This document shows positions 311 to 58,822 of a DNA stretch of 64,000 bases, piece after piece. This stretch comes from an uncultured Gemmatimonadales bacterium (GTDB lineage Bacteria; Actinomycetota; Acidimicrobiia; Spongiisociales; UBA5794): NCBI GenBank assembly GCA_964195945.1, contig CAXMRC010000135.1, positions 16,518 through 80,517 of the forward strand, given 5' to 3'. Below the pieces are notes generated by a model. That model was given only the letters and a program-made list of their open reading frames with translations. It made no database searches and was not told the origin of the DNA. Within the stretch, counting starts at the first letter, position 1. Every line of letters starts with the position of its first letter. A program made the translations under genes and the position numbers.

Positions 311-2071
311 ATGACCGACAATCGATTCGAGGCTTCCGCTGTCGGCGAATCCGGCGATAACGGAGTAGGGAGGGTTCTCGGAACCGAGCACACTTCGACT
401 CGTGAATTCCGTGTCGTCATCGATGAGTCCGAATACTTGCAACTCGATGATTTGGTCGTCGTCCGCACCCAGGTACCGAAGAAGGGTGAGGTCCGAACCT
501 ACGGCATCGTCACCGAAGTCGCCGCCATCTACGAGGGCGCTAGCTATGAGAGCGATACCCACCGCATCGCCGTTGACGGAACGCTTCCAGGGGCCAAGGT
601 TCGATCAGCCGAGATTGCCATCACCAGGGTTGATCCGGAATTGTGGGTCTCACCAGATCCGGGTGGAAAGGTCGAGCGAGCCCGCGGCATCGAGCGGGAC
701 AAAGCGCTCTATGTCGATGAGATGGGTCGTCCGCTTCCCATCGGTCTCGGGCGAGACGGCGAGCCGGTATATGTGGACCTGGACTTCTTCGATGGTCGCA
801 AAGGTGGCCACATGTCGATCTCAGGCATTAGCGGGGTAGCCACCAAGACATCGTTCGCCCTGTTTTTCCTGCGACTGCTCGCAGCCCGCCCCGACGTTCT
901 CGGCGACGGTGCGGCCAATCTGCGCATTCTCGTCTTCAACGTCAAAGGCGAGGATCTACTTTGGCTCGACAAGAACAATCGGTACTTCGATCAGGCCGCC
1001 GCAGACTCATGGCAGCGTCTTGGAGTCGAACCTGGCCCTTTCGCTTCGGTCTCATTCTGGGCACCGCCGCGGCCGCAGAGCGGAGACGTCGTCATTCCCG
1101 ACACCGGAGGAAGACAGGAGGGCGTTGCCGCCTTTACGTGGACGCCGCGTGAATTCATCGAAGACGGATTGCTGCGGTTCCTATTCACCGATGCGACTGA
1201 CAGCCGCAACCAGATCCCTTTCATCGAAGAACGAGTTAGAGCCCAATTGCGACGATTCGCAGTCGATGTGGAGGGCCGCCCCGGTGCGGTGGTACTACGT
1301 GACCCCATCGAGGGCCACGCTCCTGGCAGTCGGGTCACGCCGAATCCTGGCGAGCGGATCATCAGCGATCTGAAGACTCTGGTCCTGGCGGTCGAAGAAT
1401 TTGTTGACCCCGAGGACGGCGAACCAGACCAGAAGTGGACGGGGAGAGTGCAAGCGGGCACCGTGTCTGCTTTCGTGAGACGACTGCACTCTGCGTCGCA
1501 TCGGCTCGGACATCTCGTGCGGGCAGGTGAGAGCCGCCAGATCGACCGGCGTGCCGCACAGGTCACCGTTGTTGCTATTCAGTCGTTGCACGACCTCGGC
1601 CAGCGTTTCGTAGTGGGCGCCCTGCTAGCAGAGACCTTCGCCGAGAAGGAACACACCGGGCAGCGGTTGCCTTTGTCGGTGATCGTCCTCGACGAATTGA
1701 ACAAGTACGCACCGCGCGAGGGCAACAGCCCTCTCAAGGAAATGCTCATCGACATCGCACAGAGAGGCCGATCGCTCGGGGTGCTGTTGGTCGGCGCACA
1801 GCAGACAGCCTCCCGGGTCGCCTCGGAGGTTATGGAGAATGCCGCGATCCGTGTTGCGGGTCGGCTCGACGCCGCCGAAGCAGAACGCTCAGAGTACGGG
1901 TGGATGCTGCCTTCGACACGGGCACGGGCGCGTCTCCTCAAACCGGGAACGATGGTGCTTAGCCAGCCCGCTCTTCCTGTGCCGCTGGTGGTGGAATTCC
2001 CGTTCCCTCCATGGGCCACCCGTAAGGAAGAAGTCGACACCACCGATACAGATCCCTTCTCCGGCCTGTGA
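311..2071 (+). CDS. HerA-like / DUF87 HAS-barrel ATPase (FtsK-HerA superfamily)
   Basis: The N-terminal segment EFRVVIDESEYLQLDDLVVVRTQ is HAS-barrel-like. There is a degenerate P-loop GISGVATKTS and a Walker-B-like VIVLDELNKYAP, followed by ...IAQRGRSLGVLLVGAQQ. The gene sits directly upstream of sbcDC and overlaps it (GTGA). Confidence 0.65.
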   Translation: MTDNRFEASAVGESGDNGVGRVLGTEHTSTREFRVVIDESEYLQLDDLVVVRTQVPKKGEVRTYGIVTEVAAIYEGASYESDTHRIAVDGTLPGAKVRSAEIAITRVDPELWVSPDPGGKVERARGIERDKALYVDEMGRPLPIGLGRDGEPVYVDLDFFDGRKGGHMSISGISGVATKTSFALFFLRLLAARPDVLGDGAANLRILVFNVKGEDLLWLDKNNRYFDQAAADSWQRLGVEPGPFASVSFWAPPRPQSGDVVIPDTGGRQEGVAAFTWTPREFIEDGLLRFLFTDATDSRNQIPFIEERVRAQLRRFAVDVEGRPGAVVLRDPIEGHAPGSRVTPNPGERIISDLKTLVLAVEEFVDPEDGEPDQKWTGRVQAGTVSAFVRRLHSASHRLGHLVRAGESRQIDRRAAQVTVVAIQSLHDLGQRFVVGALLAETFAEKEHTGQRLPLSVIVLDELNKYAPREGNSPLKEMLIDIAQRGRSLGVLLVGAQQTASRVASEVMENAAIRVAGRLDAAEAERSEYGWMLPSTRARARLLKPGTMVLSQPALPVPLVVEFPFPPWATRKEEVDTTDTDPFSGL

Positions 2072-3237
2072 GAGCCCTGCACACGTCGGATTGGCACGTC
2101 GGGAAACGGATCGGCCGTTACGACCGTGCGGAGGAGTACCGCGCTGTCATCAACGAAGTTGCGAACATCGCCGATGCCGAAGAGGTTGACATCGTCCTCC
2201 ACTCGGGGGATCTGTTTGACCGCCCGGTGCCGCCGATCGAAGCCATGGACATTGCTTTCTCAGGGCTGCTTCGGCTGACCGATTCAGGTAGGCGCCCCGT
2301 TGTCGTTATCGCGGGCAATCACGATTCTGGCGGATTCTTTGAGGCTTTGGCCCCGTTCCTGCGGAACCAAAATGTCCATCTCGTGGGTGAAATCAAGCGG
2401 CCAGACGATGGCGGAGTCCTCGACATTGCAACACCTGCGGGTCGCGCCGTGGTGAGCTGCTTCCCGTTTCTCCGTGAGGGGCGCGCTTTCCATGTTTGGG
2501 ATGCAGTCGAGGAGCACTACAAGCAATACGCTGACCGGTTGCGAGCCATCGCGGAGGCATACTCGACATATGCAGGGGAGCTTGCCGGCAACGATGCGGT
2601 GCAGTTCTTGGTCGCTCACTTCTTGGTCGGAGGTGCCAAGGTCCATGGGCATGGCGCTCCGCGCGGCGAACGTGCCCTCCATATGGGAGAGGCCTATGCC
2701 GCAACCAGCGAAGCGATTCCACCCGGCCCACAGTATGTCGCTCTTGGCCATATCCACGCTCCGCAGCCTGTCCCTGGAGCCAAAGTGCCTGCCGAATACG
2801 CCGGGTCACTCTTGGAGCTTGACTTCGGAGAGGCCGGCGAGAAGAAACGGGTCGTGGTCGTTGATGTCGAGCCGGGTAGTCCTGCTTCGATTCGGTCGAT
2901 TCCGCTGGCCGGCGGGAGGCGTTTGGTGAGGGCCAAAGGAGATTGGCAGCAACTGTTGGTTCGCGACGACGTTCGCGACAGCTACCTGGACCTAACGGTT
3001 GACACAGCAGGGCCCGATCCAGGTCTTGTTGATCGGGCTCGCGACGAATTCGACTTCTTGGTTCATGTGCGAGCCGAGTATCCAAGGGCAGAGACCGATA
3101 CTGCAGCCCGATCCGGAAAGACACTAGATGAACTGTACGGGATCTACTACCAGGAGTTAGAGGGTGTGCCGGCACCGCCTGAGTTGCTGGCGGCGTTCCG
3201 TGAGGTGATGGAGGAGGCTGGATATGCGTCCCCTTGA
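2068..3237 (+). CDS. sbcD: DNA repair exonuclease SbcD (Mre11 family metallophosphoesterase)
   Basis: Calcineurin-like phosphoesterase motifs are present: DWHVG, HSGDLFD, IAGNHD and a GHIH-type motif. The GTG start overlaps the upstream stop, and the gene ends with an ATGA overlap into sbcC. Confidence 0.85.
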   Translation: MRALHTSDWHVGKRIGRYDRAEEYRAVINEVANIADAEEVDIVLHSGDLFDRPVPPIEAMDIAFSGLLRLTDSGRRPVVVIAGNHDSGGFFEALAPFLRNQNVHLVGEIKRPDDGGVLDIATPAGRAVVSCFPFLREGRAFHVWDAVEEHYKQYADRLRAIAEAYSTYAGELAGNDAVQFLVAHFLVGGAKVHGHGAPRGERALHMGEAYAATSEAIPPGPQYVALGHIHAPQPVPGAKVPAEYAGSLLELDFGEAGEKKRVVVVDVEPGSPASIRSIPLAGGRRLVRAKGDWQQLLVRDDVRDSYLDLTVDTAGPDPGLVDRARDEFDFLVHVRAEYPRAETDTAARSGKTLDELYGIYYQELEGVPAPPELLAAFREVMEEAGYASP

Positions 3238-5728
3238 GCTAAAGCTGCGTAACTTTCGGTCCTACGCGGGCGAGCACTCGTTTAGTTTTCGGGATCGGAC
3301 CCTGGTGGGCATTGTCGGTCCCATTGGCAGCGGCAAATCGTCAATACTGGACGGGATCGCGTTTGCGTTGTATGGAAGAACTCCGACTATTGGATCGGCC
3401 ACAAAGACCCTGATCAATCAACGGGCCGCAGACATGAGTGTCGTGCTGCGTTTTGTCGTTGAAGACGAGATCTGGGAGGCCGCTCGCTCGGTCCGCGTCA
3501 AGGGGCAGAGCAAGCACGCCCTGTACCGGTACGAAGAAGATTCACCTGATGCCGAACCCATCGAAAAGCTGACAATGGAGGGCGAAGTCAGTGAACGAAT
3601 TGTTGAGCTGCTCGGGCTCGACTTTTCTGCATTCGAAAGGTCGGTCTTGCTGGCGCAAGGGCGGTTCGCCGAGTTCTTGCGGGCACGGCCGTCCGATCGC
3701 GACAAGGTGCTCAAAGGTGTATTCGGTCACGATCGGGTTGACCGGATGAAGAGCATCGCTAAAGAGCGCAAGGATGGCGCGACGCACGCCCTCGACAAGC
3801 TGGTGATTCGACTTGAGAAGGTTGACGAAGTCAAGCAACGTGTCACGGAGAGCCAACAACAACTCCACCAGACTCAGATCCGCATCAAGCAGCTCGACAA
3901 GGCAGCACCAGACCTGGCCCGGTTCGAAGAAGCACAGCAGACCGCTGCCGAGACCGTTCGCAAAGCACAAGAGCGTCTCCAGGCACTCGAGGAGCATGCC
4001 AGCAAGCTCCCGGATCAGAAGGTCACCCGGCGTTCGCTCGCCGACGCCGCTGCCGCGGAGCAGCGAAGGATCGATCTCGGTAAGGCTTTGGACGAGTCAC
4101 AGAACGTTGTGCAGACTGCGGAAAAGGAGCTCAGGGAGGCCAATGACGCTGAGGAGCCCGAGACGATTGCCGGTGCGGTGCGTCTGTTGGCAGCGGCGGA
4201 CCCGCAACTCAAGGCAGTAGTCGATGCTGACCGTCGTATTGCTATGGAGGCGGAGCGTCTTGCTGCCGCCCAGGGAGCAGTCGCCACAGTGGCAAGCCGA
4301 CTGGGCGAAGCGGAACAGGTCAAGGACAAATCCTTGGGACGCGCCGTAGAAGCGGCGATGATCCTCGATGAAGCGGAACGAGCGCTAGAGAGCGCCAGGC
4401 ATGCCGACATGGCCGCGACCCTACGCGCCGAACTCGTCGTCGGTGTTGAGTGTCCGGTGTGCCAACAGCCGATCGTTGACCTCCCGCACGCAGCTGGAGA
4501 AACTCATCTCACAGAACTCGATCGGGTGCTCGAGAGTGCCCGGCGTACGAAGAAAGAAGTTGACGACTCCCGCACCGAGGCGCTGACCACTCTGGAGCGC
4601 ACCAAGGAGCAACTCGAAGCAGCCAAGGAGAGCGTCGCAGCTGCCGAGAATCAGCTGGCGGGGTTACGCGAAGATTCGATCCGAGCTCGCGGTGATCTCG
4701 AAGAGACGACTCTGGTGCTGGAGAAAATCCTTGGCACCGGCGACCCGGAGGAGCATCTGGAAAGCCGTCGCAAAGCCTACGAGTCGCTTGTCATCGATCG
4801 GGACGAGGCGCAGCGCAGAACTGATCAGGTTCGTGGCGAGCATGATCAGTCGATTCGAGATGAACAGTACGCAAGGAAGGCGCTTCAGGACCTTGGTTTG
4901 AGATTGGCTGAGTTGGCGACGCGACTCGACTTCCCGCTCGAAATTGGAGAGGATCCAGATGCGTTGGGCTCTGCGTTCGATGAACTCAGAGATCGCTGGC
5001 AACAAGCCACCACAGAGCTGGGAAGTGAGCGCGCCACGGCAGAAGCAGCGCAAATCGAAACTGAATCTGCTCGCCGCAAGCTGCTGGCCGGACTTGCAAT
5101 AGAAGACGGTTTTGAAGTGGATCGTGCGGTGCTGGCTGACCGATCCCGCAGGTTGGGTGAGGAGATAGCCACGGGTGGCGAGGAGCTGCAGAAGGCCCGC
5201 GAACTGTTCGAGGAGCGAGGCAAGCTCGAGGACGCGATCGAGTTGTACGGTCGGATCAACACCGACCTTACCGATTCTCGCTTCGTTCGATTCCTGCTTG
5301 ACGATGAGCGGGCGAGGCTCGCGGAGCTGGGTAGCGAACATTTTCAGCAGCTCTCCGCCGGTAGGTATCGTTTTGCGGACGACAAGTTTGCGATTGTTGA
5401 CCTGACGGCAGCTGACGTGGTCCGTCGTGCCGATAGCCTCTCCGGCGGCGAAACGTTTCTTGCATCGCTCGGTCTTGCGCTCGCCCTCGCCGAGATGGTT
5501 GCCGGAACCGGCGGCAGACTTGACGCGTTCTTCTTGGACGAGGGATTCGGCACTCTTGATCCGGAACACCTCGATCTGGCGATGGAGGGCATTGAACAGC
5601 TGGTAGCCGATCAGTCGAACCGGCTTGTGGTAGTTGTAAGCCATGTTCCGGAGATGAGGATGCGTCTCGAAGATCTGATCGAATTGGAGCGCAACCCGCT
5701 GACCGGCGACACAAAGGTGATTGCGTAG
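3224..5728 (+). CDS. sbcC: DNA repair ATPase SbcC (Rad50 family, SMC-like)
   Basis: An N-terminal Walker A GPIGSGKSSILD is followed by a long coiled coil. A CPVCQQ zinc hook sits mid-protein. The C-terminus carries an ABC signature LSGGETF and a Walker B FFLDEGFGTLD. Confidence 0.85.
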   Translation: MRPLELKLRNFRSYAGEHSFSFRDRTLVGIVGPIGSGKSSILDGIAFALYGRTPTIGSATKTLINQRAADMSVVLRFVVEDEIWEAARSVRVKGQSKHALYRYEEDSPDAEPIEKLTMEGEVSERIVELLGLDFSAFERSVLLAQGRFAEFLRARPSDRDKVLKGVFGHDRVDRMKSIAKERKDGATHALDKLVIRLEKVDEVKQRVTESQQQLHQTQIRIKQLDKAAPDLARFEEAQQTAAETVRKAQERLQALEEHASKLPDQKVTRRSLADAAAAEQRRIDLGKALDESQNVVQTAEKELREANDAEEPETIAGAVRLLAAADPQLKAVVDADRRIAMEAERLAAAQGAVATVASRLGEAEQVKDKSLGRAVEAAMILDEAERALESARHADMAATLRAELVVGVECPVCQQPIVDLPHAAGETHLTELDRVLESARRTKKEVDDSRTEALTTLERTKEQLEAAKESVAAAENQLAGLREDSIRARGDLEETTLVLEKILGTGDPEEHLESRRKAYESLVIDRDEAQRRTDQVRGEHDQSIRDEQYARKALQDLGLRLAELATRLDFPLEIGEDPDALGSAFDELRDRWQQATTELGSERATAEAAQIETESARRKLLAGLAIEDGFEVDRAVLADRSRRLGEEIATGGEELQKARELFEERGKLEDAIELYGRINTDLTDSRFVRFLLDDERARLAELGSEHFQQLSAGRYRFADDKFAIVDLTAADVVRRADSLSGGETFLASLGLALALAEMVAGTGGRLDAFFLDEGFGTLDPEHLDLAMEGIEQLVADQSNRLVVVVSHVPEMRMRLEDLIELERNPLTGDTKVIA

Positions 5729-15865: not shown

Positions 15866-16681
15866 ATGTGCGCCAAGAGTCGATGGTCAAATGATGATGT
15901 GCTTGCTACCGATGCGGCCAAGCGTGCGCACCCGAAGCTTCCTGTCACGCCAGGTCTCGAGCTGACCCATCGCCCATCAAGAGTCTCAGGAACAGTGACT
16001 GCCTTTACTGAGGGGCAGCGGATCGTGCTCTGCGACCAAGACGGCAAACTCCATGAATTCAAGCCCCACAAAGGTGTGCTTCTTCATCACGGCAAACCGG
16101 TCGAGTTGGTCGCTGGTGAGTGGAAGAGTGACTCCGACCTCCAACTCACCGCCTCTGGCTCAATCGTCACTGGGCCGGTCCGGGCGCAAACCGCCCAGGC
16201 CAACCGGATCTGGGTCGAAGGCATCCACGATGCAGAGTTGATCGAGAAGATTTGGGGCGATGATCTTCGCATCGAAGGCATCGTCGTCGAACCGCTCCAT
16301 GGCGCCGACGACCTTGTCGACCGAGTCGCCGAATTCCACCCCGGTGCGAAACGGAGGCTCGGAGTGCTGCTCGACCACCTGATTGCGGGCTCGAAGGAAT
16401 CCAGAATCGCCGCCGGCGTCACGGATGCCAATGTCTTGATCTGCGGTCACCCATACGTCGATATCTGGCAAGCCGTGAAACCCGAGAGTTTCGGAATCCG
16501 GGCATGGCCAGAAGTGCCCGTGGGACAACCGTGGAAGGAAGGGATCATCGCTGCGCTCGGACAACAGGACGATCCCGGCCGATTCTGGCAATCGGTTCTC
16601 GCCAGGGTGTCCTCGTACAAGGATGTTGAGACGCCGCTCGTCAACTCCGTCGAGCAACTGATCGACTTCGTCACGACATAG
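15866..16681 (+). CDS. Conserved hypothetical protein
   Basis: A 271-aa ORF with good coding statistics in the correct GC frame. I recognise no motif. Confidence 0.5.
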
Positions 16682-16733: not shown

Positions 16734-17189
16734 ATGAGAGCAGTTGTACAAAGGGTTGCCCGAGCATCGGTGACCGTAGAAAATGAGGTCGTTGGGGAGA
16801 TCGGTGCGGGGCTTCTGGTTCTGTTGGGTGTCGGCCATGGTGACGGCACTGCCGATGCGGAAGCCCTTGTTGACAAGCTGCTGGGACTACGCATCTTCCC
16901 CGACACCGAGAAGCGAATGAATCTCTCCGTTGTCGATATCGGTGGAGAGATGCTGGTGGTGAGCCAGTTCACGCTTCTTGCGGATATTCGTAAAGGACGA
17001 CGCCCGTCCTTTACGGGTGCGGCTGATCCCAAGATTGCATCTGCCGTAGTTGAAGAAGTCGTCGAATTGGTGCGTGCCCATGGATTAGCGGTGGCCACCG
17101 GCGAGTTCGGGGCGATGATGGATGTTGAGCTTCTCAACGCAGGTCCGGTGACGATCGTCGTCGATGTCGTCGATGGACGGGTTCAGTGA
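16734..17189 (+). CDS. dtd: D-aminoacyl-tRNA deacylase
   Basis: [10 protein letters not shown] is the characteristic N-terminus, and the SQFTL motif is present. 151 aa. Confidence 0.85.
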
Positions 17190-20100
17190 GCGGTGTGGGC
17201 CTTGCCTGCGTCACAGAATCTGAGGAAATCACAGTGCCGGCAGGCGTCTGATGGGGACTGGGGGTACTCGGGACCCGCAGCCGCATTGATCAACTCTTCT
17301 AGATGCTGTCGCGCTTGTTCCAGCCAGTCCTGGTCGATGTCGACTTTGACTTCTTCGAGGGTTCCCGCACCGAGATACGCAAACGTGACTGACATCGTCT
17401 CTGGCGGTTCAGCGGCCAACGCTCCGTCGGCAGCAGCAATGGCGTATGCCTCCAATTGCACCATGGCTGCAGGATTGTTTCGATTGCGACCAGATTTGAA
17501 GTCGACGATTTCCCATGCCCCTGGTGTCGATTCATACACGGCATCGATCCGGCCCCTCACTCGTCCGGAGGGGAGACTGATGTCGATAGGTGCCTCGACA
17601 TATCTCGGCTTCATTTCGGCGAACCGCGAATCGAGGTACACGTCGTAAGGATCGGGACCGCCGCTCACGGGTGCGTCGGATTCAGTCACGTCGTACAGAT
17701 CTTCTGCGAGTTCTTCAAGCGGCATCTCGCCGCGGCCGTGGAGCTCGATGAGGCGATGCACTTTGACACCGCGGCGCATCGCGGGAGCCTGCCGACGGGG
17801 AAGCCGCTCTACTTCTGACCAGTAGAACCGCTGCGGGCAACCTGCCATTGTCACCAAACCGGTAACCGAAGTATCAACTCCGTGGGTGGTTTCCTCTTGT
17901 ATCGGAGAGGCCGGGAGATCATCAAGGATTATGCGCATCTGGTCCACGGCCGCATCGTACGGTTCGTCGGCTCCCGCTACGAGTCCTCGGGGCCAGTCGG
18001 TGTTGGCGAGGGTGTCGCGGAGCGCCTGTCGCCATCCATCGGGAAAGAGCGGGTCGGGTGCGCCGACGCTCGAGACAATCGACAGCGAGATCGGTCGTTC
18101 CCCCGGTTCCGTGACGCGGTGATTGATTTCGACGCCATCGGCGCTGGCAGCCGCGACCAATACCGGACTTGGTGGGCGAGGCTTCGTGGCCCCTCCGTGC
18201 CAATGTGCCCCCGTCAGGTACAACCGAGTCTTGGCTCTCGTGATGCCAACATATGCGGTGCGCCACTCCTGGCGGTCCCTGACCTGGCGAAGAGCTTCCT
18301 TGCGGTCATCCTCATCAAGGCCAAGTGGCACCGGGGCTTCGAGGCGCAGTTCATATGGGACAAACCGTGCCAATCGGATTGGGTCATCCATGGCTCCACC
18401 CCTGACAGGGAAGACACCCTCGGTGAGCGCGGGGAGAAAGACCGTTTCCCACTCGAGTCCCTTGGCGCGGTGAATCGTGAGTAGCACCACCGCGTCCTCG
18501 GTGCCAACATTGGCGGTGTCGAGTTCCGTTGCCGATCTGTCGTTGGCGATCAGATCGAGGTACGCAAGAAAGGCCTGCAGGGTTGGCCTGCCCCGCAGCG
18601 GGCTCCACTCTTCGGCGAGGTCGAGGAAGCGATAAAGGTTGACGCGCGCTGTGAGAGCCGGTGCGGGGCTTCTGGCCTCGACCTCGCTCCAGATTCCGGT
18701 CTCATCAAGGATGTGCCGACACAAATCAACAAGCGAAGTCCCTTGGGCGAGTTCGAGGAATCGACGGTAGAGCATCCTGAACGACAACAGCCGGGTGCGT
18801 GCCGTAGGGGTGATGTCTTCGATCTCTTCGAGCTGATCGATTGCCTCGACAAGAGGCCAACCCAGATCGGGGTCGTCTCCGAGTTGCGCTCGGTTGGGCC
18901 GAATCCAACGGCTCAATGCCGCGATGTCACGCAGCCCCAAGCGATAGCCGGGACCCAGCAGCAGTCGGGCCAGGGCAACAGAGTCGCCGGGCCGTTCGAT
19001 GGTACGGAGCCAGGCGTGCAGATCGGCAACGTCAGGAAGGTCGAGCAGCCCGCCAAGCGACCCGACTTCGACCGGCACGTCGAGTGCTTGGAGCGCATCC
19101 CGGATCAAGGCCATGTCCTTGTTCTTGCGGAAGATGACTGCCATGTCACGCCAGCGAACGTTTTCCTCGTCGTTGAGCCGCACGATTTCTTCTGCGATCC
19201 ACTCTGCCTCATCGACGGCGGTACGAAAGTATTCCGCTGCAACAAAACCGGGAGGTGTGTCAGCGACAGGTTGGAGCGTTGCGAATGGCTCATCTTTGTA
19301 CAGGACACTGCGCACTTCATGGGCGACGTCCAGGATGGACGAACCCGAACGGCGGTTCTCCGTTAGCGGCAATGTCTGCGCCGCTGATCCATCTGCCGCA
19401 GGGAAGTGGACGGGAAAGTTGTCAAAGTTCTCCGTAGATGCGCCACGCCATTCATAGATGGTCTGGTCGGCATCGCCGACTGCCGTTACCGGGAAGCCAT
19501 CGGCAAAGACCGCTCGGAGCAACTCGCGTTGCGCCGGGTCGGTGTCCTGGTATTCGTCGAGCAGCGCAACTGAATACCGATCTCTGATGCGGTTCGCAAT
19601 CTCGGCGTGACCGGTCAACAGCTGGTGAGTGAGCAAGATGAGGTCACCGTAATCAAGAACCCCCAGATCTCGCTTGTGCTGCTCATATCGTCGAACGATC
19701 TGTGCGATTTCGGAACGAGCCGCGGAGATATCATCGTCTGGCGCGACGGCAAGCAGGTCGTTCGCCGAGCGAAGATTACGGGCTAGCTGTGACCCCAGGT
19801 CAGCTGCCTCATCGACCCGCGACGGCACCCAGGTCAGATCGAGATGTTGATACTCTCCCGCGGCGATGGATTCGTGGATGAGTTGTCGCACATAGCCGGG
19901 ACCAACGACGTCGGTATCTCGCTCCACGCCAACTATTGCGCCAAACTCCTGGAGGATGCCATATGCAAAACCGTGGTAAGTGGTGACTTCGACCTCACGT
20001 CCCTCGGCGGCGAGATCCGGAAGCGTGTCGCGCAGCCGCCCTGCCAGCTCCTCGGCCGCCTTGTTGGTGAACGTGATGCCGATGGCCCGCTCCGGGCTCA

Positions 20101-20236
20101 GACCACCCGTAACAAGATGAGCCAGGCGGTGGACGATGGTTGTGGTTTTGCCGGTCCCCGCTCCGGCGATGACGCGAAGGGGGAGGAGAGGATATTCGAT
20201 GATTGCTCTCTGCTCAGGTGTTGGAACGAAGTTCAT
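17183..20236 (-). CDS. adnB: AdnB-like UvrD-family helicase with a C-terminal RecB-type nuclease and Fe-S cysteines
   Basis: Walker A is [10 protein letters not shown], and the UvrD motifs [14 protein letters not shown] and HRAKGLEW follow. The C-terminus has a PD-(D/E)XK region plus [10 protein letters not shown]. The ATG at 20236 overlaps the upstream stop (ATGA). Confidence 0.75.
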
Positions 20237-23200
20237 ACGAACTCTGGACCTCCATCGGCCCACGCGGGGCATAAGGAACGTAGACCGCATCGATCACAGT
20301 GCGGACCGGGATTTGGTGACCAGTCCTCGTTTTGGATTCCAATGGCGATCGCGGTGAGGCGTGCTTCGACCTCGTCAAGTCCTTCCATCTTGAACTTGCG
20401 GACTGCGACCTTCTTGTTCGACGCCATCGGGTACCACAGTTCGGCCCCGACGACCGCGCCCAGCGCACCGATTTCCTCGTCACGCTGTGCGGCGAGTGCG
20501 TAGAACCCCAGCTGCAGCGACTCGCTGGCCTCGGCAACGGTGACCGGGCTTCTGCTTGTCTTGTAGTCGACCACGGTTACACCGGCGGGGGACACATCGA
20601 TCCTGTCGGCTCGTCCTGTCCACCTGACACCGGCTATCACCGTGTCGAGCCTTTGCTCCAAAACCGCGGCAGTTCGCTGCGGGGCCGGCCAGTTCTGGTA
20701 GAGCTTGGCCAAGCCAGCGTGAGCGCGCTGCACCCACGAGTTCGAGAAGGGGGGACCCTCAAAGTCGTATGGATCGAACCTGTCGTTTAGCTCTTGGAGC
20801 GCCTCCTCCAGAGTGCTGTGAGGCCGGCCGTCGGCGACGGCACGTTTTTCGGCTGCTTCCAGCACGTCGTGGATCAGCGTCCCAAACGTTGCGTGGATGG
20901 AGCTGTCCGATCCCACCTTGAGACGCCGTTCAAGTGCATAGCGACGGGGGCAGATTTCGTAGCCCTGCGCTTGCGAGGGAGACAGAACCGGATCGGCACC
21001 GACGAGGAGGTCGTTCGGTCCGCGGGCGGGGACACCGCTGAAAAGCTGCGGTGAGCGTAGATCCCAGGTTGGGCCGTCGGCGAGGGTTGTCAGTGCTGCA
21101 AGACGTGAGGGCGATGGTGCTGCCACGTCTGTCAAACAGCGTCGTAGTGCAGATTCGGCTTCGCTGGGGGTGACCGGTAGACGAGAAGATTCCTGGGGTG
21201 TGGTGTCAGGGGAAACGCATATCTCGATGCGGCCGGCTGGTCGGCCCGGATCTTGGTTGATGGTGGCGGCGATCTTGGTGAAGAACCTGCTCGGTCTTCC
21301 CGGCCCGTCGTCGAGGCCCCGCTCGGTTGCCGTCCACACGACCCGGCGTCGCGCCCGCGTCATTGCCGTGTAGGCGAGACGGCTCTCTTCCTGAAGACGG
21401 AAGGCGCGGTACTCGGCGGTGTCAGTCGGCACGTGAGGGAGAAGGTGCCTGACTCCGAGGAGAGAGTCGCGAGACCGGAGATCTGGGAAGACACCATCGA
21501 CGGCATCGGCGATGAAGACGACATCGAGCTCAAGCCCTTTCGCTTGGTGCAGGGTCGTCAAGGTAAGGCGATCACCGTCGGGTCGGCGGTAGCTGAGCAG
21601 CGGCTGTGCTTCGAAGTCTTCGCTTTCAGCCAAACCGCGGTAGTCGAGCAGCGTCCCTTTTGGATTTCTTTCTTCCCATCGATTGAGCACCTGCGCTAAC
21701 GACCGCCATGCCGCCCGCTCTTCGGCCGCGGTCGGGTCATTGACCATCTCTTCGATTCCAGGCAGCTCGCTCCATACACGCCACAAACCTTGCACCGCAG
21801 GAACCTGATTGGCCCAGCTGGCGTCTGCGATGAGGTTGGCCAGCGGAGCCCAATCTGGGAGGGTGGCCCTGATCGCGGGGGCCCAGGCGCCGGTTGATCT
21901 TGCGGTTCTTTCCAGTGCTCGGTACGCCCCAATGGTCAACCCGACGCGGGATCCGAGCAACACCCTCCGCAAGGATTGATTTGCTGCGATTGGTCCGTCA
22001 CACGCGGTAGCAGCTACGGCGAGGTCGAGTAGAAAGCGAACCGCGGGCTGGTCGGTGAGCCTGCTGCCGGGTAGTTCGTGGGGCACATGACGTCTCTCCA
22101 GTGCCCGTGACATGTCAGCCAGGAAGCGACGTTTGCTGCGAACGAAGACTCCGATGTTGCTGTACGGGATTCTCTCCGTCAGGTGGAGGCGCTGTGCCTC
22201 GGATGCGATCCATTCTGCTTCTTCTACCTGTTGGTCAAACAGATACGCCTCGACAGCACCGCGACCTGCGGCAGGGACTACGGCTCCTGTCGCCCCTGGG
22301 AGGTCTCCGGTGGTTACGTGTACGGCCGCGTTGAGGATGGTCTCTGGCGTACGGAAGGAGGTCGTCAGCAGAATGCGTGTTGCCATCTCATCCGAGGCCC
22401 CAAAATCGCTCTCGAACGCAGCGACATTTTCGACGGTGGCGCCGCGGAAGCTGTATATCGACTGGTAGGGATCGGCGGCAGCTGCGATATGCCGTCCGCG
22501 ATGCTGTAGAGCTTGTAGCAGTCGAACCTGGGCTGTAGTGGTGTCCTGGTACTCATCAACCAGGACATAGCCAGGGGAGTCGACCGTTGCGAGATCGCCG
22601 GACTCCAGCAAAGTGACCGCGGTAGCGATCAGGGTTCCGTAGTCGATGCGGTCGGTCCCGCGTAGCTCGTTGGTGTACGTCTCGAGGAATTGAGGGAGGC
22701 CTTTCCAATCATCCCGCTGCATCGTGGCGAGGGAGGTCGGTGTGTGCATCTGCTCGGCGGCGCGCAGTATGAAGTCGGTCACTTCCTTTGCAAATGTCTG
22801 AGTGCCAAGAAGCTGCGAAAACGCCTGTGACCACGACCCGGGGTTCTCCGCGAGGAGAAGACGATGTACAAGTGCAACTTGTTCCGGACCAGTCAGGATC
22901 TGAGGGTTGACGGTCCAACCCGCCTGCTCGGCATGGTTCTCGACGAGCCGTGCGGCATATGAGTGAAAAGTTGCGACATCGAGTTCCCCGATGGTCGCGG
23001 GTATGCCGGCGCGGATTCGTTCTCGAACCTCTGCCACACCACGGCGGGAGAAGCCGAGGATCGTAATAGCCTCGGGGCGAACTTCCTTTGCGGTAAGCAA
23101 GTGGATAGCCCGACGCACCAGAAACTCGGTCTTGCCGGTTCCCGGCCCCCCGACAACTATCTGTGGTCCGTCAGTTAGGGCGACCGCGTCGGCCCATCCG

Positions 23201-23247
23201 TCCGGTTCGACAGCGATGATCGGCGCGTCTTGGGACCATTGGCTCAC
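20233..23247 (-). CDS. adnA: AdnA-like UvrD-family helicase-nuclease subunit
   Basis: The N-terminus has VVGGPGTGKTEFL, and DEYQDT, IYSFRGA and HQAKGLE follow. The C-terminal nuclease region ends in HCDRCGLRSLC. The start overlaps the stop of the upstream nuclease gene. Confidence 0.75.
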   Translation of the reverse strand: MSQWSQDAPIIAVEPDGWADAVALTDGPQIVVGGPGTGKTEFLVRRAIHLLTAKEVRPEAITILGFSRRGVAEVRERIRAGIPATIGELDVATFHSYAARLVENHAEQAGWTVNPQILTGPEQVALVHRLLLAENPGSWSQAFSQLLGTQTFAKEVTDFILRAAEQMHTPTSLATMQRDDWKGLPQFLETYTNELRGTDRIDYGTLIATAVTLLESGDLATVDSPGYVLVDEYQDTTTAQVRLLQALQHRGRHIAAAADPYQSIYSFRGATVENVAAFESDFGASDEMATRILLTTSFRTPETILNAAVHVTTGDLPGATGAVVPAAGRGAVEAYLFDQQVEEAEWIASEAQRLHLTERIPYSNIGVFVRSKRRFLADMSRALERRHVPHELPGSRLTDQPAVRFLLDLAVAATACDGPIAANQSLRRVLLGSRVGLTIGAYRALERTARSTGAWAPAIRATLPDWAPLANLIADASWANQVPAVQGLWRVWSELPGIEEMVNDPTAAEERAAWRSLAQVLNRWEERNPKGTLLDYRGLAESEDFEAQPLLSYRRPDGDRLTLTTLHQAKGLELDVVFIADAVDGVFPDLRSRDSLLGVRHLLPHVPTDTAEYRAFRLQEESRLAYTAMTRARRRVVWTATERGLDDGPGRPSRFFTKIAATINQDPGRPAGRIEICVSPDTTPQESSRLPVTPSEAESALRRCLTDVAAPSPSRLAALTTLADGPTWDLRSPQLFSGVPARGPNDLLVGADPVLSPSQAQGYEICPRRYALERRLKVGSDSSIHATFGTLIHDVLEAAEKRAVADGRPHSTLEEALQELNDRFDPYDFEGPPFSNSWVQRAHAGLAKLYQNWPAPQRTAAVLEQRLDTVIAGVRWTGRADRIDVSPAGVTVVDYKTSRSPVTVAEASESLQLGFYALAAQRDEEIGALGAVVGAELWYPMASNKKVAVRKFKMEGLDEVEARLTAIAIGIQNEDWSPNPGPHCDRCGLRSLCPAWADGGPEFV

Positions 23248-24086
23248 GACGCGGCGACTGCGGCGTTCGCCTCATCGGCAAATGCAGGGCAGCGATCTTG
23301 GAACTGGCACCAACCACACAGCTTGCCTGGTCGGGGAGGGAAATCGTTTTTGACGATTGCCCGATTGATCGCAGACCACAATGCCTCTAACTTTCGCTGT
23401 GTTGCGTCCAGTTGGAGGTCGTTCACCGGTATCTCGTAGACGGTTGGCCCGTTGAGGTACATCAGCTTCAGGCGGACTGGAGTTCGTCCGATCCGCTTCC
23501 TGATCAATAACGCATAGATTTTTAGGGCAAAGAACGCCGGGATTGCATACTGCTCGGGAGGAGCTTTACCGGTCTTGTAATCAGTGATCACAACACCGTC
23601 CGGTTCCTCTTCCATACGGTCCAGGATCCCTCGAATCGTCATATCTCCGAGATCCTCGGTCATGTCCAGCTCGCGGTCGAGTGGCTCGAGTTGGGTCGGA
23701 TCCTCTACCAAGAAATAATTGGCGAGAACACCGAGACTTTCGATGCCCCAGGCCCGCTCATCTTCAGTGTTGTCAAAGAGGTCGGGGAACTCTTCGTCGC
23801 GGAGCTCCACCCACGCCTTGCGGAACAACCCGTAAAGGGTTTCGGGTGTTCGTTCTTTGGCGGCTAGGTCAAATAGCCATTGCAGTGCTAGATGAGCTGT
23901 TGTCCCGCGTGCCTGATAGACCGTTGGCGGAACTTCGATCTTGTCGATCGCCTTGAATTTGAAAAGCTGTGGGCAGACTTTGAAGTCGCCGGCGCGGCTT
24001 GGCGATAGCGTCTCCAAGGAGGTCGGCGGAGACATCTCCGGCTTCGGTCGAGGTGTCTTCTGCGGGGTTTTGTCAGGAGTTGTCAT
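23244..24086 (-). CDS. Cas4-like / RecB-family PD-(D/E)XK nuclease with a 4-Cys Fe-S cluster
   Basis: An N-terminal Cys (FKVCPQLF) pairs with a C-terminal CGWCQFQDRC, giving the C..CxxCx5C pattern. A DYK(TG) motif is present. GGAGA sits 5 nt before the ATG at 24086. The ORF track extends to 24344. Confidence 0.65.
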   Translation of the reverse strand: MTTPDKTPQKTPRPKPEMSPPTSLETLSPSRAGDFKVCPQLFKFKAIDKIEVPPTVYQARGTTAHLALQWLFDLAAKERTPETLYGLFRKAWVELRDEEFPDLFDNTEDERAWGIESLGVLANYFLVEDPTQLEPLDRELDMTEDLGDMTIRGILDRMEEEPDGVVITDYKTGKAPPEQYAIPAFFALKIYALLIRKRIGRTPVRLKLMYLNGPTVYEIPVNDLQLDATQRKLEALWSAINRAIVKNDFPPRPGKLCGWCQFQDRCPAFADEANAAVAAS

Positions 24087-24239
24087 CGTTTCTCCGACTA
24101 TACGCCGGCCCACCGACATAAACCACATCGATGTAGTTATCCACAGCCGGACGCGTCGATGGAGCAGCGGCAACAGCCGATGGTGATGCATCGCGAAACA
24201 ATTTCGTAGCACGCGAAAACTATAATGCGATCTGGTTTG

Positions 24240-24975
24240 ACTGCCCGCTGCGGTCGGCTTTACGTTATGGGTCCTTGAGGGCTCCACCCATGGAGGAGCG
24301 GAATTCGGAAGGACGGGACCAGGGAAACCGGACCCGACCGGCACCGGATTCTATGACCAGGGCGCTTGCGTCCACGGTCACCCGGAATGGATACATTCCG
24401 TCTCGGCGGCGCTTCGGCAAAGCCGGGAAACCCGCCGCAGGGACTTCGGTCTCAGTGGCACGTCGGACAGGCTTCGGCCTCAAAGACAGCCTGCGGGACT
24501 TCGGTCCGGCAGATGCTGCGGCTTCGGCCACAGCAAAACTGGGTGAGCTTCGGCTCGACCAGCGTTCTCCGAGTGAGGCGCATCGCCCACCGGGTGCGGG
24601 CTTCGGCCCAAGCCAGGTAGACGGTTGCCGCACCCGCAGGACCGATAAGACTTCTGGTCTTATCAACACACCGGTGCGATCGGTGGTCACGAGGGTTTCC
24701 TCGATTGAGAGCTTCGGCTCTGAACTGAGAGTCGTCAGGCTTAGGTCTGGTGGCAAGCCAGCGGGATCAAAAGGTCACACGGGTTGCCCCGAGCGAGGGC
24801 TTCGGCACTCGCAAGGAGCGGCACGGCTGGCTCGTGGCAGGACTTCGGTCCTGAACCGAGCGAGACGAGCAGCGACTGGAAGGGCCCGACCCCTCGGGGT
24901 AGGTGCCCGACCGAAAGCAAAGAATCCCCGAGAGGGTGGCGGTTTCGGCCAAAACTCCCTCGGGGTTTTCTTTGT
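24240..24975 (+). ncRNA. Candidate large structured RNA: an array of ~11 cUUCGg tetraloop hairpins ending in a terminator-like hairpin plus U-tract
   Basis: No convincing ORF covers the region. Perfect small palindromes recur at 24411, 24442, 24470, 24495, 24520, 24545, 24598, 24708, 24797 and 24840. Each carries a UUCG loop on the plus strand only. Nested junctions occur, for example CGGCGG..GCUUCGGC..CGGGAAACCCG..CCGCCG. The last hairpin (24918-24962) is followed by uuuucuuuguu. Confidence 0.35.
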
Positions 24976-28280: not shown

Positions 28281-28979
28281 ATGACAAGTCCGGTCGAGCC
28301 CGAAAGTGCCGAGCACCACGGTATTGAACACCTGATTCTTGACGACCATCAGTGGGCGGAACGGATCGCGATTTTGCTGTGGGCGATTGCGGGGCTTTCC
28401 TTTGTTGCGATGGCGATTCCGGCAACCCGGGACATTCTCGATTCCTTCGATCTGTGGTTCAACGAACTGACCTATCCGATCAAGTGGGCCCCGTTGACAG
28501 ATCTGTCACACCTGATGGCCTTCCTCGGAAGCGCATGGTTTGTGTGGCCGTTTCGCCTGGTCGTGGGTTCGGTGCTGTATGTCAAGAAGCGTTGGCTCGC
28601 CCTGGCAGGGTGGGTGCTGCCGATTGTCATGTCTGAGCCATTGATCGGGTCGTTGAAGGCGGCTTACGACCGGCCCCGTCCGGTGGAAAGCCTGGTTGAC
28701 GTAGCTTCCGGTGCGTTCCCATCGGGGCATGCGGTCGCGGGTGCTGTCATTGCCATATCTTTGGTCATCGTGTTGGTTCCCCCTGGAGTCGCCCGACGGA
28801 ACCTCGAGATGGCTGCGGCCGGGTTCGCCGTGCTTATGGCGGGGTCGCGGCTGTATCTCGGCGCCCACTGGCTTACCGACGTTTTTGGAGGCGTTGCCCT
28901 TGGCGCGGCGTGTGCCATCGGCGGTGCGGCGATAGCACAGCGCTGGTACCGCCGACGGACCAGCACAGCCGGCTTCTAG
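28281..28979 (+). CDS. PAP2-family phosphatase (phosphatidic acid phosphatase type 2)
   Basis: The motifs are YDRPRP, PSGHA and GSRLYLGAHWLTD. It is hydrophobic with multiple TM segments. Confidence 0.7.
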   Translation: MTSPVEPESAEHHGIEHLILDDHQWAERIAILLWAIAGLSFVAMAIPATRDILDSFDLWFNELTYPIKWAPLTDLSHLMAFLGSAWFVWPFRLVVGSVLYVKKRWLALAGWVLPIVMSEPLIGSLKAAYDRPRPVESLVDVASGAFPSGHAVAGAVIAISLVIVLVPPGVARRNLEMAAAGFAVLMAGSRLYLGAHWLTDVFGGVALGAACAIGGAAIAQRWYRRRTSTAGF

Positions 28980-30202
28980 GATTGTGCGGTCACATAGGCG
29001 TCACCGGCTAATGCGGTCCGCTCCGATTCTGACATTCGCCACGTTTGGTTCCGCTGCCACAGCACATAGGAAGCTGCGCCAAGCGGAATTGGTAGAACAT
29101 ACGTTATAGCGCGGAAGACGAGGATCGCAGCAACCACCTCGGTCTTGGTGACCACGTCTAGTCCGATCGTTAGCGCCGCAACGTAGCCCAACTCGACGAC
29201 TCCGACACCACCCGGTGTCACCGGGAGGGCAGAAATCAATCTGACAAATGCGAACGCGGCCAGCACCTGAATCCAAGAGAGCTCTTCCTGGCTTACGCCG
29301 GTATGACGCAGGGTGATCAGTAGCACGGCATAGAGGGACAGGTGGCTGAGCATGGTGGCCAACGTCAGTTGTAGCCAGCGGTGCTGCAGAAGCCCGATCG
29401 TATCGCTGCGGAATCCGGCAGCCCGCTCACCCCAACTGCTGACAGGGCCTTTGCGCAAGATGCGGAGCAACTTTGACACCAGTCGTTCCAAAGCAGTACC
29501 GACGGATCGAGCAAGCCGATCGCTACCGAGAATCATCCAGAGACCTGTTACTGCGCCGCCTAAGGCCGCAAGCCCTATTGCCGAGGCCGTGATCCAAGCA
29601 TTCGAGACTTCGCTTTCAATGGCAAGCAGGCCAAGTGCGAGGATCGGCATGCCCATCTTGACGAAGTTGTTCCAGATCCCGGTCACCACGGCAGAGCGGG
29701 TTATGGCCGGCACAGAGAAGCCCCAAGAAGTCAGCATTGCGAGCGTGACGCCGACACCGATCGCCCCACCGCCGGGAAGAGTATTGGAGACGGCTGTGGA
29801 CGACTGATTGACCACAGTGGCTTCTCGCAAGCGAAGCCCGGGAAGCGCAGCAACGAGGACGAACCAGTAGGTAGCGAGATTCCAGAGCGCAACAATGCCC
29901 AACGAGATCGACTCCAGCCAGGTAAGTGACCGGACTGTTCCCCACACCTCGGTGTAATCAGCGATCCGGGGCATCACGCCAGCAAAGATGGCGACGACGA
30001 CGACTATCGAGATGACGGACTGGACAATTCGTCGTGTCTTTGGGGGCGGAGTTGTCCCGGATTGGTCTATGGACTTGGCCGCTTTGTCGCTCACTGTTTG
30101 GACCTCGTTAGTCGCCGTACGCGACACTACACGTTGGCCTCGTCTGCCCGGGCTGCGAGCCATAAACGGGTCGCGAAACAAAACAAAAAGGCGCGAAATC
30201 AA
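28976..30202 (-). CDS. Flippase-like integral membrane protein (lysylphosphatidylglycerol-synthase TM-region / UPF0104-like)
   Basis: About 8 TM helices with a GGGA(I)G(V)G segment, recognised by architecture. Its stop overlaps the PAP2 gene's stop region (convergent). Confidence 0.5.
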   Translation of the reverse strand: MISRLFVLFRDPFMARSPGRRGQRVVSRTATNEVQTVSDKAAKSIDQSGTTPPPKTRRIVQSVISIVVVVAIFAGVMPRIADYTEVWGTVRSLTWLESISLGIVALWNLATYWFVLVAALPGLRLREATVVNQSSTAVSNTLPGGGAIGVGVTLAMLTSWGFSVPAITRSAVVTGIWNNFVKMGMPILALGLLAIESEVSNAWITASAIGLAALGGAVTGLWMILGSDRLARSVGTALERLVSKLLRILRKGPVSSWGERAAGFRSDTIGLLQHRWLQLTLATMLSHLSLYAVLLITLRHTGVSQEELSWIQVLAAFAFVRLISALPVTPGGVGVVELGYVAALTIGLDVVTKTEVVAAILVFRAITYVLPIPLGAASYVLWQRNQTWRMSESERTALAGDAYVTAQS

Positions 30203-57454: not shown

Positions 57455-58822
57455 TTTGCCTAACTCGGGCGAGGTGTATTGCTCCTGGTCGTACTGGTTC
57501 GCCCTGGGATTCTTGGAGACTCTCGAGTGTGGAAAGATGAGAGTTATGGCACGAGAGATTACGTCGGGAAAACCGACCACACGGCGGTATTCGAATGAGG
57601 AGAAGGATCGGGCGGTTCGTCTGGTTTTCCAGCTTCGTGAGGAGTTGGGGATGTCGCAGGGGACGGTGGTTCGGGTTGCTGACCAGTTGGGTTACGGCAC
57701 CGAGTCGGTGCGCCGGTGGGTAGCCCAAGCCGAGATTGATGCCGGGGGTGTTGCGGGTATCTCGACTGCGGAGCGGGCCAAGATATAAAAGCTTGAGCAG
57801 GAAAACCGGGAGCTACGATGAGCCAACGAAATCTTGAAGCGGGCTTCGGCTTTCTTTGCGGCGGAGCTCGACCGCCCACAGAAGTAATGGTGCAGTTCAT
57901 TGACGAGAATCGTGACGACTTTGGGGTCGAGCCTATCTGTGCGACGTTGCAGGTGGCCCCATCGACATATTACGAAAACAAGTCTCGGATACCATCGGCT
58001 CGTGCGATCCGCGATGCGGTGATGATGCCGATCCTGTTGGCCCTGTTTCAGGCGAACTACTCGGTCTATGGGGTCCGGAAACTGTGGAAGGCAGCGTTAC
58101 GTGACGGTCACACGATTGGCCGTGACCAGGTGGCTCGTCTGATGAAGGCTCTTGATATTGAGGGAGTTTCACGTCGTCGACGGGTTCGCACGACCCGCCC
58201 CGACGACAAAGCCGTCCGGCCCCAAGATCTTGTCGAGCGGGACTTCACTGCCGATCAGCCGAACCAGCTGTGGGTGACGGACCTAACGTTTGTTCCGACC
58301 TGGCAAGGTGTTGGGTATGTGTGTTTCATCATCGATGCGTTCTCCCGCCAGATCGTCGGGTGGCGGGTTGCTTCCAATATGAGAACCCAGATGGTCCTCG
58401 ACGCCTTAGAGATGGCCCGCTTTTCTAGAGGCACCCGCCTCGAAGGTCTTGTGGCTCATTCCGATGCCGGGTCGCAATACACATCGATCCGATACGGGGA
58501 ACGCCTCGACGAGATCGGAGCAATACCATCGATCGGATCGGTCGGTGATTCGTTCGATAATGCACTTGCGGAGTCGGTTAACAGTCTCTACAAAGCCGAG
58601 CTGATCTACGGACCAGATCAGGGACCGTGGCGCAGCATCGAGGACGTCGAACTGGCTACTTTGGGTTGGATCCACTGGTACAACACCAAGCGGATCCACA
58701 GCTATCTCAACGACGTTCCACCGGCCGAATTCGAGGACACCTACCATGCCCAACAACGGGCAAGACAGTTGATTGGAAACCAATAGAACGAGCCTCCAAC
58801 AAACCCAGTACGCACCATACGG
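57455..58822 (+). mobile_element. IS3-family insertion sequence (orfA 57537-57788, orfB 57818-58786)
   Basis: orfA is an HTH transposase N-terminus (..AVRLVFQLREELGMSQGTVVRVADQLGYG..). orfB carries an rve DDE integrase core (WVTDLTF..IDAFSR.., HSDAGSQYTS, DSFDNALAES). The imperfect terminal inverted repeats are GGTCGTACTGGTT and AACCCAGTACGCACC. The element lies between upp and ffh. Confidence 0.75.

Follow-up and report, generated by a model that had tools for sequence, protein, structure and literature searches.

The AdnAB helicase-nuclease is the main recombination end-processing machine of mycobacteria, but recombination in vivo can do without its two nucleases: M. smegmatis cells whose AdnAB is nuclease-dead remain able to recombine, as shown in a study whose authors did not exclude a backup nuclease and which noted that no 5'-3' single-strand DNA exonuclease was known in mycobacteria (PMC5314763). 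AdnAB is included in the listed PafBC regulon, and adnA has been shown to be strictly PafBC-dependent in mycobacteria (PMC8682763). The consensus of the PafBC/RecA-NDp promoter has been given as tGTCgg(N10)tA(N3)T (PMC8635444). A separate M. tuberculosis gene, Rv2119, which has the annotation 'RecB-like exonuclease' and is listed as 'RecB family exonuclease 3' (PMC2587704), is induced when a recA mutant is exposed to mitomycin C (PMC8151990), and in the supplement of that study it is flagged 'PafBC_candidate' with a TGTC box 7 nucleotides (nt) upstream of its start; the adnAB pair Rv3202c-Rv3201c is flagged likewise, also with a box 7 nt upstream. No functional study of Rv2119 was found in the open-access literature. 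The stand-alone nuclease ACE1, an Argonaute-associated enzyme of the Cas4 family, takes up single-stranded DNA by threading it along a channel, as AdnA does, and depends on a partner for its supply (PMC12094033). Here we describe a locus in which a gene of the Rv2119 family stands at the head of an adnA-adnB pair. It lies in a 64,000-nt stretch of DNA, referred to below as the window, from an uncultured Gemmatimonadales bacterium placed by GTDB in the Acidimicrobiia (Actinomycetota; Spongiisociales; UBA5794), comprising positions 16,518 to 80,517 of contig CAXMRC010000135.1 in assembly GCA_964195945.1.

The minus strand of the window holds the nuclease gene, then an AdnA-like and then an AdnB-like open reading frame (ORF), and all three were recovered where an initial annotation made from the letters alone had placed them. 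The three genes and their junctions are as follows.

24086..23244, minus strand: stand-alone nuclease gene (gene 1), 280 amino acids, ATG start
23247..20233, minus strand: AdnA-like gene (gene 2), 1004 amino acids, GTG start
20236..17183, minus strand: AdnB-like gene (gene 3), 1017 amino acids counted from the ATG at 20236
23244..23247, minus strand: GTGA overlap, the GTG start of adnA lying over the TGA stop of the nuclease gene
20233..20236, minus strand: ATGA overlap, the ATG start of adnB lying over the TGA stop of adnA

Both junctions, read directly from the sequence, are thus 4-nt stop-start overlaps. The initial annotation had given ATGA at both; this holds at 20233-20236, but 23244-23247 reads GTGA. 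There is no in-frame ATG available to the AdnA-like gene at this first junction, its start being the GTG, and no Shine-Dalgarno sequence is evident upstream of it. Neither a sigma-70-like promoter nor a convincing terminator was found inside the three-gene unit, and the overlaps are predicted to be sites of translational coupling of the three cistrons. A longer alternative ORF of 366 amino acids exists for the nuclease, within which the conserved promoter box described below would fall. The 280-residue start is taken to be right because the homologues begin there and because the conserved promoter lies just upstream. The existence of the operon and the identities of its genes are held with great confidence. 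Our overall reading, that this is a three-gene damage-response operon whose nuclease acts with AdnAB, is given a probability of about 0.55, with induction, polarity and cooperation as its predicted parts.

The product of gene 1 matches a single Pfam family, PF12705 (PDDEXK_1), with 104.3 bits against a cut-off of 22 (E 1.4e-29) and over profile positions 1-247 of 247. Its catalytic residues are D156 and D169-Y-K171, and its cluster ligands C38...C257xxC260x5C266. In an alignment of 40 diverse homologues reaching down to 31% identity C38, H65, E128, E139, D156, D169, K171, Y191, C257, C260 and C266 are invariant, which indicates that the D-DxK motif and the 1+3 cysteine iron-sulfur site are under selection. 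The PD-(D/E)XK assignment of the initial annotation, with its C...CxxCx5C pattern and DYK motif, is in agreement with these results. The N-terminus carries a disordered tail of about 25 residues rich in proline and lysine. An AlphaFold2 model of the protein has a predicted local distance difference test (pLDDT) score of 93.4, and the nearest solved structures found with Foldseek are ACE1 (9iab) and the nuclease domain of M. smegmatis AdnA (6ppr_A, 7sjr_A), with E values of 1e-9 to 6e-11 and template modelling (TM) scores of about 0.65. Within the window, the AdnA encoded next to gene 1 matches the gene 1 product through its nuclease domain, at 25% identity over 249 residues (E 1e-16), whereas AdnB gives a short C-terminal match only. 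D169 aligns with D1014 of AdnB, the residue mutated in the nuclease-dead form. Since the homology to the AdnA nuclease domain runs over its full length, and that to AdnB over a short piece only, the gene 1 product can be regarded as a free-standing AdnA-type nuclease module. It is thus predicted to be an iron-sulfur PD-(D/E)XK nuclease of the Cas4/AddB fold.

The protein had initially been called Cas4-like. This is apt for the fold, but not for the family: PF01930 gave no match at E values up to 0.01, and TIGR00372 scored 35.9 bits against a cut-off of 65. A CRISPR-associated Cas4 was also rejected on context, since neither cas1/cas2 nor a CRISPR array lies beside the operon and the homologous loci likewise have a housekeeping character. 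A phylogenomic study of Cas4 excludes PF12705 as not CRISPR-associated. It had further been suggested that the protein might act as an end-recognition factor; a non-catalytic role of this kind is unlikely given the invariance of the D-DxK residues.

The other two products each consist, according to Pfam, of UvrD-helicase and UvrD_C domains followed by a C-terminal PDDEXK_1 domain. ORF3 matches M. smegmatis AdnB (6ppu_B) with 315 bits (E 9e-93). ORF2 matches AdnA chains 7sjr_A and 6ppj_A at about 1e-35 in two stretches that span motor and nuclease; on the motor alone, PcrA and UvrD score slightly above AdnA. The translation of the AdnA-like gene contains the Walker A motif GPGTGKT, DEYQD, GRADRID, VDYK and C...CDRCGLRSLC, and that of the AdnB-like gene a Walker A motif, DEYQD, GRIDAV, VDFK and C...CxxCx5C, so that the D-DxK motifs and all four iron-sulfur cysteines are intact in both subunits. 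From these translations and matches, genes 2 and 3 are assigned as an AdnA/AdnB-type pair, as had been proposed: two UvrD-like motors, each ending in a RecB-type nuclease with its own Fe-S cysteines, in the order and with the overlap of Rv3202c/Rv3201c.

These assignments bear on a possible role of the three genes in defence against phages or plasmids, as a module of a Cas4-like nuclease with UvrD/GajB-like helicases. PADLOC returned superfamily-level matches to Cas4, DruK and GajB models, the nearest solved structure to gene 1 is a defence accessory (ACE1), and phage families encode similar exonucleases (phrog_69). The PADLOC matches are, however, partial and generic, the best matches of genes 2 and 3 are bona fide AdnA and AdnB, and no GajA, Cas1/Cas2 or Argonaute gene adjoins the operon. 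Moreover, the operon is part of a conserved housekeeping block that has been inherited vertically throughout the class, and its DNA-damage promoter is conserved from Acidimicrobiia to Mycobacterium. A defence module is considered very improbable.

Gene 1 belongs to a very large actinobacterial family, labelled 'putative RecB family exonuclease' in the sources, with 5418 clusters at 50% identity (E up to 1e-3); a 100% identical protein and many homologues at 70-90% identity carry Acidimicrobiia labels. As the family includes the annotated Rv2119, the nuclease itself is not new. The homologue in one Mycobacterium sp. locus (L072 in our numbering of loci) is flanked by a TrmI/GCD14 gene and by mpa, the proteasomal ATPase gene. 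It is a reciprocal best match of the gene 1 product at about 39% identity, scoring 185 bits against the nuclease and 64 bits against AdnA among the proteins of the window. This trmI-mpa neighbourhood is one that we take to be the Rv2115c-Rv2119 region of M. tuberculosis H37Rv. From the reciprocal match and its setting gene 1 is assigned as the orthologue of Rv2119, an assignment that draws in part on the map of H37Rv. In the 10 longest sequences among the 150 best representatives of the family, the additions were inteins and one tandem-repeat protein, LAGLIDADG being the only added domain. In the family members P0172 and P0229 (540-740 amino acids) the nuclease domain is split just after the DYK motif (around residue 171) with LAGLIDADG in the insert, which is probably an intein at the catalytic site; P0217, P0218, P0235 and P0236 probably carry the same split. 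Inteins at catalytic sites are typical of conserved DNA-metabolism proteins.

Immediately upstream of the nuclease gene lies a promoter box that is an exact match to the motif.

24118..24097, minus strand: PafBC/RecA-NDp-type promoter box, TGTCGGTG-GGCCGGCG-TATAGT

The arrangement TGTCGGTG-N8-TATAGT fits the PafBC/RecA-NDp consensus perfectly, and its -10-like TATAGT ends 10 nt ahead of the nuclease ATG, from which a near-leaderless mRNA is predicted. The box is the sole exact match to TGTCRGTG-N8-TANNNT in the 64-kb window, and the looser TGTC-N12-TANNNT likewise has no other match there, against about 3.2 in shuffles. In the form TGTC(A/G)N-N10-TA(T/C)NNT the box stands ahead of the orthologous nuclease gene in 39 of the 41 loci from Acidimicrobiia, and the start codon usually follows the -10 element by 6-10 nt, an arrangement that corresponds to the leaderless one described for Rv2119 and adnA of M. 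tuberculosis (7 nt). Beyond this class, 22 of 42 actinobacterial loci (Streptomyces, Aeromicrobium, Streptosporangiaceae and others) have an exact box ahead of the orthologue. In 19 of the 26 loci that keep adnA apart from the nuclease gene, adnA has a TGTC box of its own; in the window one box serves all three genes. Since boxes precede both genes in many lineages, the nuclease and adnAB are placed in the same predicted damage regulon across the phylum. Induction of the operon by DNA damage in the source organism is predicted from the box and is considered likely. No Pup (prokaryotic ubiquitin-like protein)-proteasome locus or pafBC was present among the window ORFs scanned. As to other damage regulators, CGAAATTGTTTCG upstream of the operon was considered as a LexA/SOS site (Cheo box) and rejected, its spacing being N5 and not N6; CGAA-N6-TTCG does not occur upstream of the nuclease gene in the window, and stray matches far upstream were seen in only 3 of 83 loci.

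The association of the nuclease gene with adnAB was followed in a scan of one genome per GTDB species with the motif [TV]DYKTGKA, from which the best 80 loci were kept and divided into Acidimicrobiia-type loci (nuclease identity of at least 57%, n=38) and others (at most 45%, n=42). In 33 of the 38 Acidimicrobiia-type loci adnA-adnB lies downstream on the same strand; of the remaining five, one has adnAB 6 kb away on the other strand and four are on contigs that end too soon. The gap between nuclease and adnA in the 33 linked loci ranges from 6 bp to 4.6 kb: under 120 bp in 7 loci, 0.25-0.73 kb in 9, 0.9-2.2 kb in 15 and over 4 kb in 2. The intervening genes are an opposite-strand glutamate dehydrogenase gene (gdh), DUF488 or both, and also a CAP-domain gene. 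Tight coupling is not confined to the close relatives of the window (82-89% identity) but is seen again in those linked loci that are most distant from it (58-62%). The nuclease is better conserved than the motors, with 73% against 48-49% identity in L008 and 62% against 44% in L031. The gdh insert was recorded in L009, L011, L024, L029 and L036, and a same-strand DUF488 insert in L003, L007, L008, L010 and L015; DUF488 may there belong to the unit as well. The initial annotation would have taken absence of the nuclease gene beside adnAB in all relatives as the sign of a recent local insertion. The linkage turned out to be lineage-specific, present in the Acidimicrobiia and absent from the 42 other loci, which neither refutes that annotation nor fully bears it out.

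Several of these observations weigh against a partnership of the nuclease with AdnAB. In the 42 other loci, among them those of Streptomyces, Mycobacterium, Aeromicrobium and two 'Acidimicrobiales' bins, the orthologue has no adnAB within 10 kb. Across the Acidimicrobiia the whole block bPH/SHOCT - nuclease - (gdh/DUF488) - adnA - adnB - dtd is syntenic, and unrelated neighbours such as dtd are equally fixed in position; adjacency is for this reason weak evidence for shared function. Because unrelated genes intervene in most lineages, co-transcription is not a requirement. A Pfam scan of the 10 longest family representatives mentioned above revealed no fusion to helicase or repair domains. The nuclease sites of AdnA and AdnB are both intact, so that nothing obviously needs complementing, and the physical or functional link of the nuclease to AdnAB is one that we infer.

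The same data can be explained by an independent damage-induced nuclease for single strands or flaps, acting on gaps, flaps or blocked ends and sharing with adnAB only a regulator and an inherited neighbourhood. Loss of a spacer in one Acidimicrobiia lineage would then have merged two adjacent PafBC-regulated units into one operon. This explanation accounts for the unrelated genes in the synteny block, for those in the gaps of 0.25-4.6 kb in 26 of the 33 linked loci, where adnA usually has its own TGTC box, and for the orthologue being unlinked in 42 of 42 loci outside the Acidimicrobiia type and adjoining trmI and mpa in Mycobacterium. It fits less well with the tight adjacency (under 120 bp or overlapping) in both the closest and the most distant linked relatives, which suggests that the arrangement is old or recurrent, or with the expectation, by analogy, that an AdnA-type module would need a helicase to feed it single-stranded DNA. 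An independent nuclease is regarded as a serious alternative, at appreciably less than even odds.

A further possibility is that the nuclease is a stable third subunit of an 'AdnABC' complex, in which it would contribute another cutting site, bringing these to three, or take the place of an existing one. The translational coupling of all three cistrons, the position of the nuclease gene at the head of the operon and its slower evolution relative to the motors would be consistent with this. M. smegmatis AdnAB, however, is active and complete without such a subunit, and the cryo-electron microscopy structures 6ppj, 6ppr, 6ppu and 7sjr hold chains A and B only; the genes are unlinked in most Actinomycetota, and the 10 longest representatives again speak against it in containing no fusion proteins. 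A stable third subunit is thought quite unlikely.

In the reading that we favour, a damage-response operon whose nuclease acts with AdnAB, damage would produce single-stranded DNA and a WYL-type (PafBC-type) activator would switch on the box. The cistrons of the near-leaderless mRNA would be translated in series via the GTGA and ATGA overlaps, so that the three proteins are made together. The AdnA-AdnB heterodimer would unwind the break, with the AdnB motor leading on the 3' strand, the AdnA nuclease cutting the 5' strand and the AdnB nuclease the 3' strand. By analogy with ACE1 and AdnA, the small nuclease would cut a free single strand only once this had been threaded along a narrow channel to the buried active site, and would not act on duplex alone. 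It would most probably serve as an auxiliary single-strand nuclease that trims or degrades the strand unwound by AdnAB or by another damage-induced helicase, or that cleans blocked ends. The 5' strand is most likely the one attacked. Cooperation with AdnAB is put forward tentatively, at somewhat under even odds. A wider proposal would make the Rv2119-family nuclease a dedicated partner of AdnAB ('AdnC') throughout the Actinomycetota and the backup nuclease of M. smegmatis, trimming the 5' strand unwound by AdnB. This is speculative and rather unlikely; if it were true, the operon of the Acidimicrobiia would be a genomic trace of that partnership.

Further elements lie upstream of the operon, some of them recurring elsewhere in the window.

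24121..24145, minus strand: element abutting the TGTC box, TGTGGATAA (DnaA-box-like) and then the imperfect palindrome AACTACA-N4-TGTGGTT
24192..24218, minus strand: direct-repeat pair TTTCGCG-N13-TTTCGCG, 74 nt upstream of the TGTC box
30172-30198, minus strand: second copy of TTTCGCG-N13-TTTCGCG, upstream of an LPG_synthase_TM gene
24412-24853, plus strand: array of C(UUCG)G-type hairpins with 10 CTTCGG sites spaced about 25-110 nt apart

In the first of these TGTGGATAA overlaps the palindrome AACTACA-N4-TGTGGTT, and an AACTACA-N4-TGT(GGTT/CAC) arrangement was found again in about 15 Acidimicrobiia loci. TGTGGATAA is also a perfect match to TTATCCACA, which we take to be the E. coli-type DnaA box consensus. 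The element may be an extended activator site or the site of a second regulator.

The direct-repeat pair TTTCGCG-N13-TTTCGCG occurs twice in the window against 0.02 expected. It was found in 39 Acidimicrobiia loci, always on the strand of the nuclease gene, with one copy 11-75 nt upstream of the TGTC box. The second copy lies 0.3-3 kb further upstream, either beside a divergent bPH_2/SHOCT gene or ahead of an LPG_synthase_TM gene, and in the compact loci L017, L025, L027, L034 and L065 the two repeat pairs bracket the hairpin-rich intergenic region. The pair is a candidate site for a second regulator, its membership in the operon being uncertain. A metagenome scan for TTTCGCG-N13/14-TTTCGCG returned 120 mostly chance matches in unrelated taxa with GC contents of 28-73%. 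Downstream of the second pair (30100-30200, minus strand) is TGTCGCGTACGGCGACTAACGA, which differs from TGTC-N12-TANNNT by one mismatch, an A for the final T. It lies about 10 nt ahead of the GTG start of the LPG_synthase_TM gene (28976-30100, minus strand), and this gene may be driven by the same composite architecture.

The hairpin array had been noted initially as lying directly upstream of the operon on the opposite strand, and this is borne out by the ten CTTCGG sites, six of which have perfect stems of 4-6 bp; one further such hairpin occurs elsewhere in the 64 kb. The complementary CCGAAG is enriched in many Acidimicrobiia loci over the 1 kb that precedes the nuclease gene (8 copies in L003, 9 in L004, 8 in L017, 7 in L034, 7 in L035 and 10 in L041), and judged by these counts the array is a conserved neighbour of that gene. 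An Rfam search of the upstream intergenic region including the array gave no match.

The neighbouring genes in the window comprise, with adnA, a PAP2/kinase-like gene, dtd, DUF3097 and a two-component system. The dtd gene (D-Tyr-tRNA deacylase, 16734-17189, plus strand) converges on adnB (17183-20236, minus strand) with a 7-nt overlap of the 3' ends; no terminator was found between the two, and the convergence is retained in 22 related loci. A second nuclease system for the processing of DNA ends lies about 11 kb from adnAB, an SbcCD-like pair composed of an SbcD-like protein (Metallophos, 389 amino acids, 2068-3237, plus strand) and an SbcC-like protein (AAA_23/SMC_N/SbcC_Walker_B, 834 amino acids, 3224-5728, plus strand). 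The pair is preceded by an ORF of 586 amino acids (311-2071) with no Pfam match, and no TGTC box stands ahead of it. An ALIL pseudoknot (RF01497, 89 bits) at 57848-57961 (plus strand) lies at the start of an ORF of 322 amino acids (57818-58786); as this is a frameshift signal of IS3-family transposases, it marks an insertion sequence.

Each component by itself has been described before: AdnAB, the PF12705 fold, the Rv2119 family and also the PafBC box. The translationally coupled nuclease-adnAB operon and its class-wide linkage in the Acidimicrobiia appear to be undescribed in the open-access literature, where no paper was found that treats such a gene as a part of AdnAB, in line with the initial statement that the stand-alone nuclease is outside the described system. 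Relatives of Rv2119 occur throughout the actinobacteria, are damage-induced and have a PafBC promoter, and the operon with adnAB makes them a cheaply testable candidate for a helper nuclease. The PafBC-type promoter with its leaderless architecture is now extended to the Acidimicrobiia, which suggests that the PafBC-type damage response predates the split of the actinobacterial classes.

Of the known systems, AdnAB itself (M. smegmatis MSMEG_1941/1943; M. tuberculosis Rv3202c/Rv3201c) is the closest to genes 2 and 3. It shares with them the order adnA-adnB, the 4-nt overlap, the PafBC-type promoter upstream and, in each gene, a UvrD-type superfamily 1 motor joined to a C-terminal RecB-type nuclease with a 4-Cys cluster, although the identity of the window proteins to their mycobacterial counterparts is modest. 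In mycobacteria, however, the box is directly upstream of adnA and the orthologue of the nuclease is elsewhere, whereas in the window the box drives three cistrons of which the extra nuclease is the first. Rv2119 (COG2887/PF12705) resembles gene 1 in length (278 against 280 amino acids), in its D/DxK and 4-Cys residues and in having the same box near its start codon, but it is not coupled to adnA: its neighbours are trmI and the gene of the Pup-proteasome ATPase, and adnAB is about 1.2 Mb away. ACE1 is the best structural match (Foldseek E 6e-11, TM 0.66) and is likewise a stand-alone protein, of about 270 amino acids, with D-DxK and a 1+3 cysteine Fe4S4 'iron staple' and without a helicase domain; it cuts only threaded single-stranded DNA and works with a partner system. 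It differs in being cyanobacterial, in being encoded with a long-A prokaryotic Argonaute for defence against invading DNA and in its identity to gene 1 of 15-17%. CRISPR Cas4 has the PD-(D/E)XK fold and the C...CxxCx5C pattern, with weak profile similarity over the C-terminal half, but gene 1 falls below the cut-offs of that family and is without CRISPR/cas context. The nuclease domains of AddA/AddB (AddAB) and Dna2 have the same fold and iron-sulfur 'staple' and act on single strands delivered by the attached motor; in contrast to these fused nucleases, the module in the window is free-standing.

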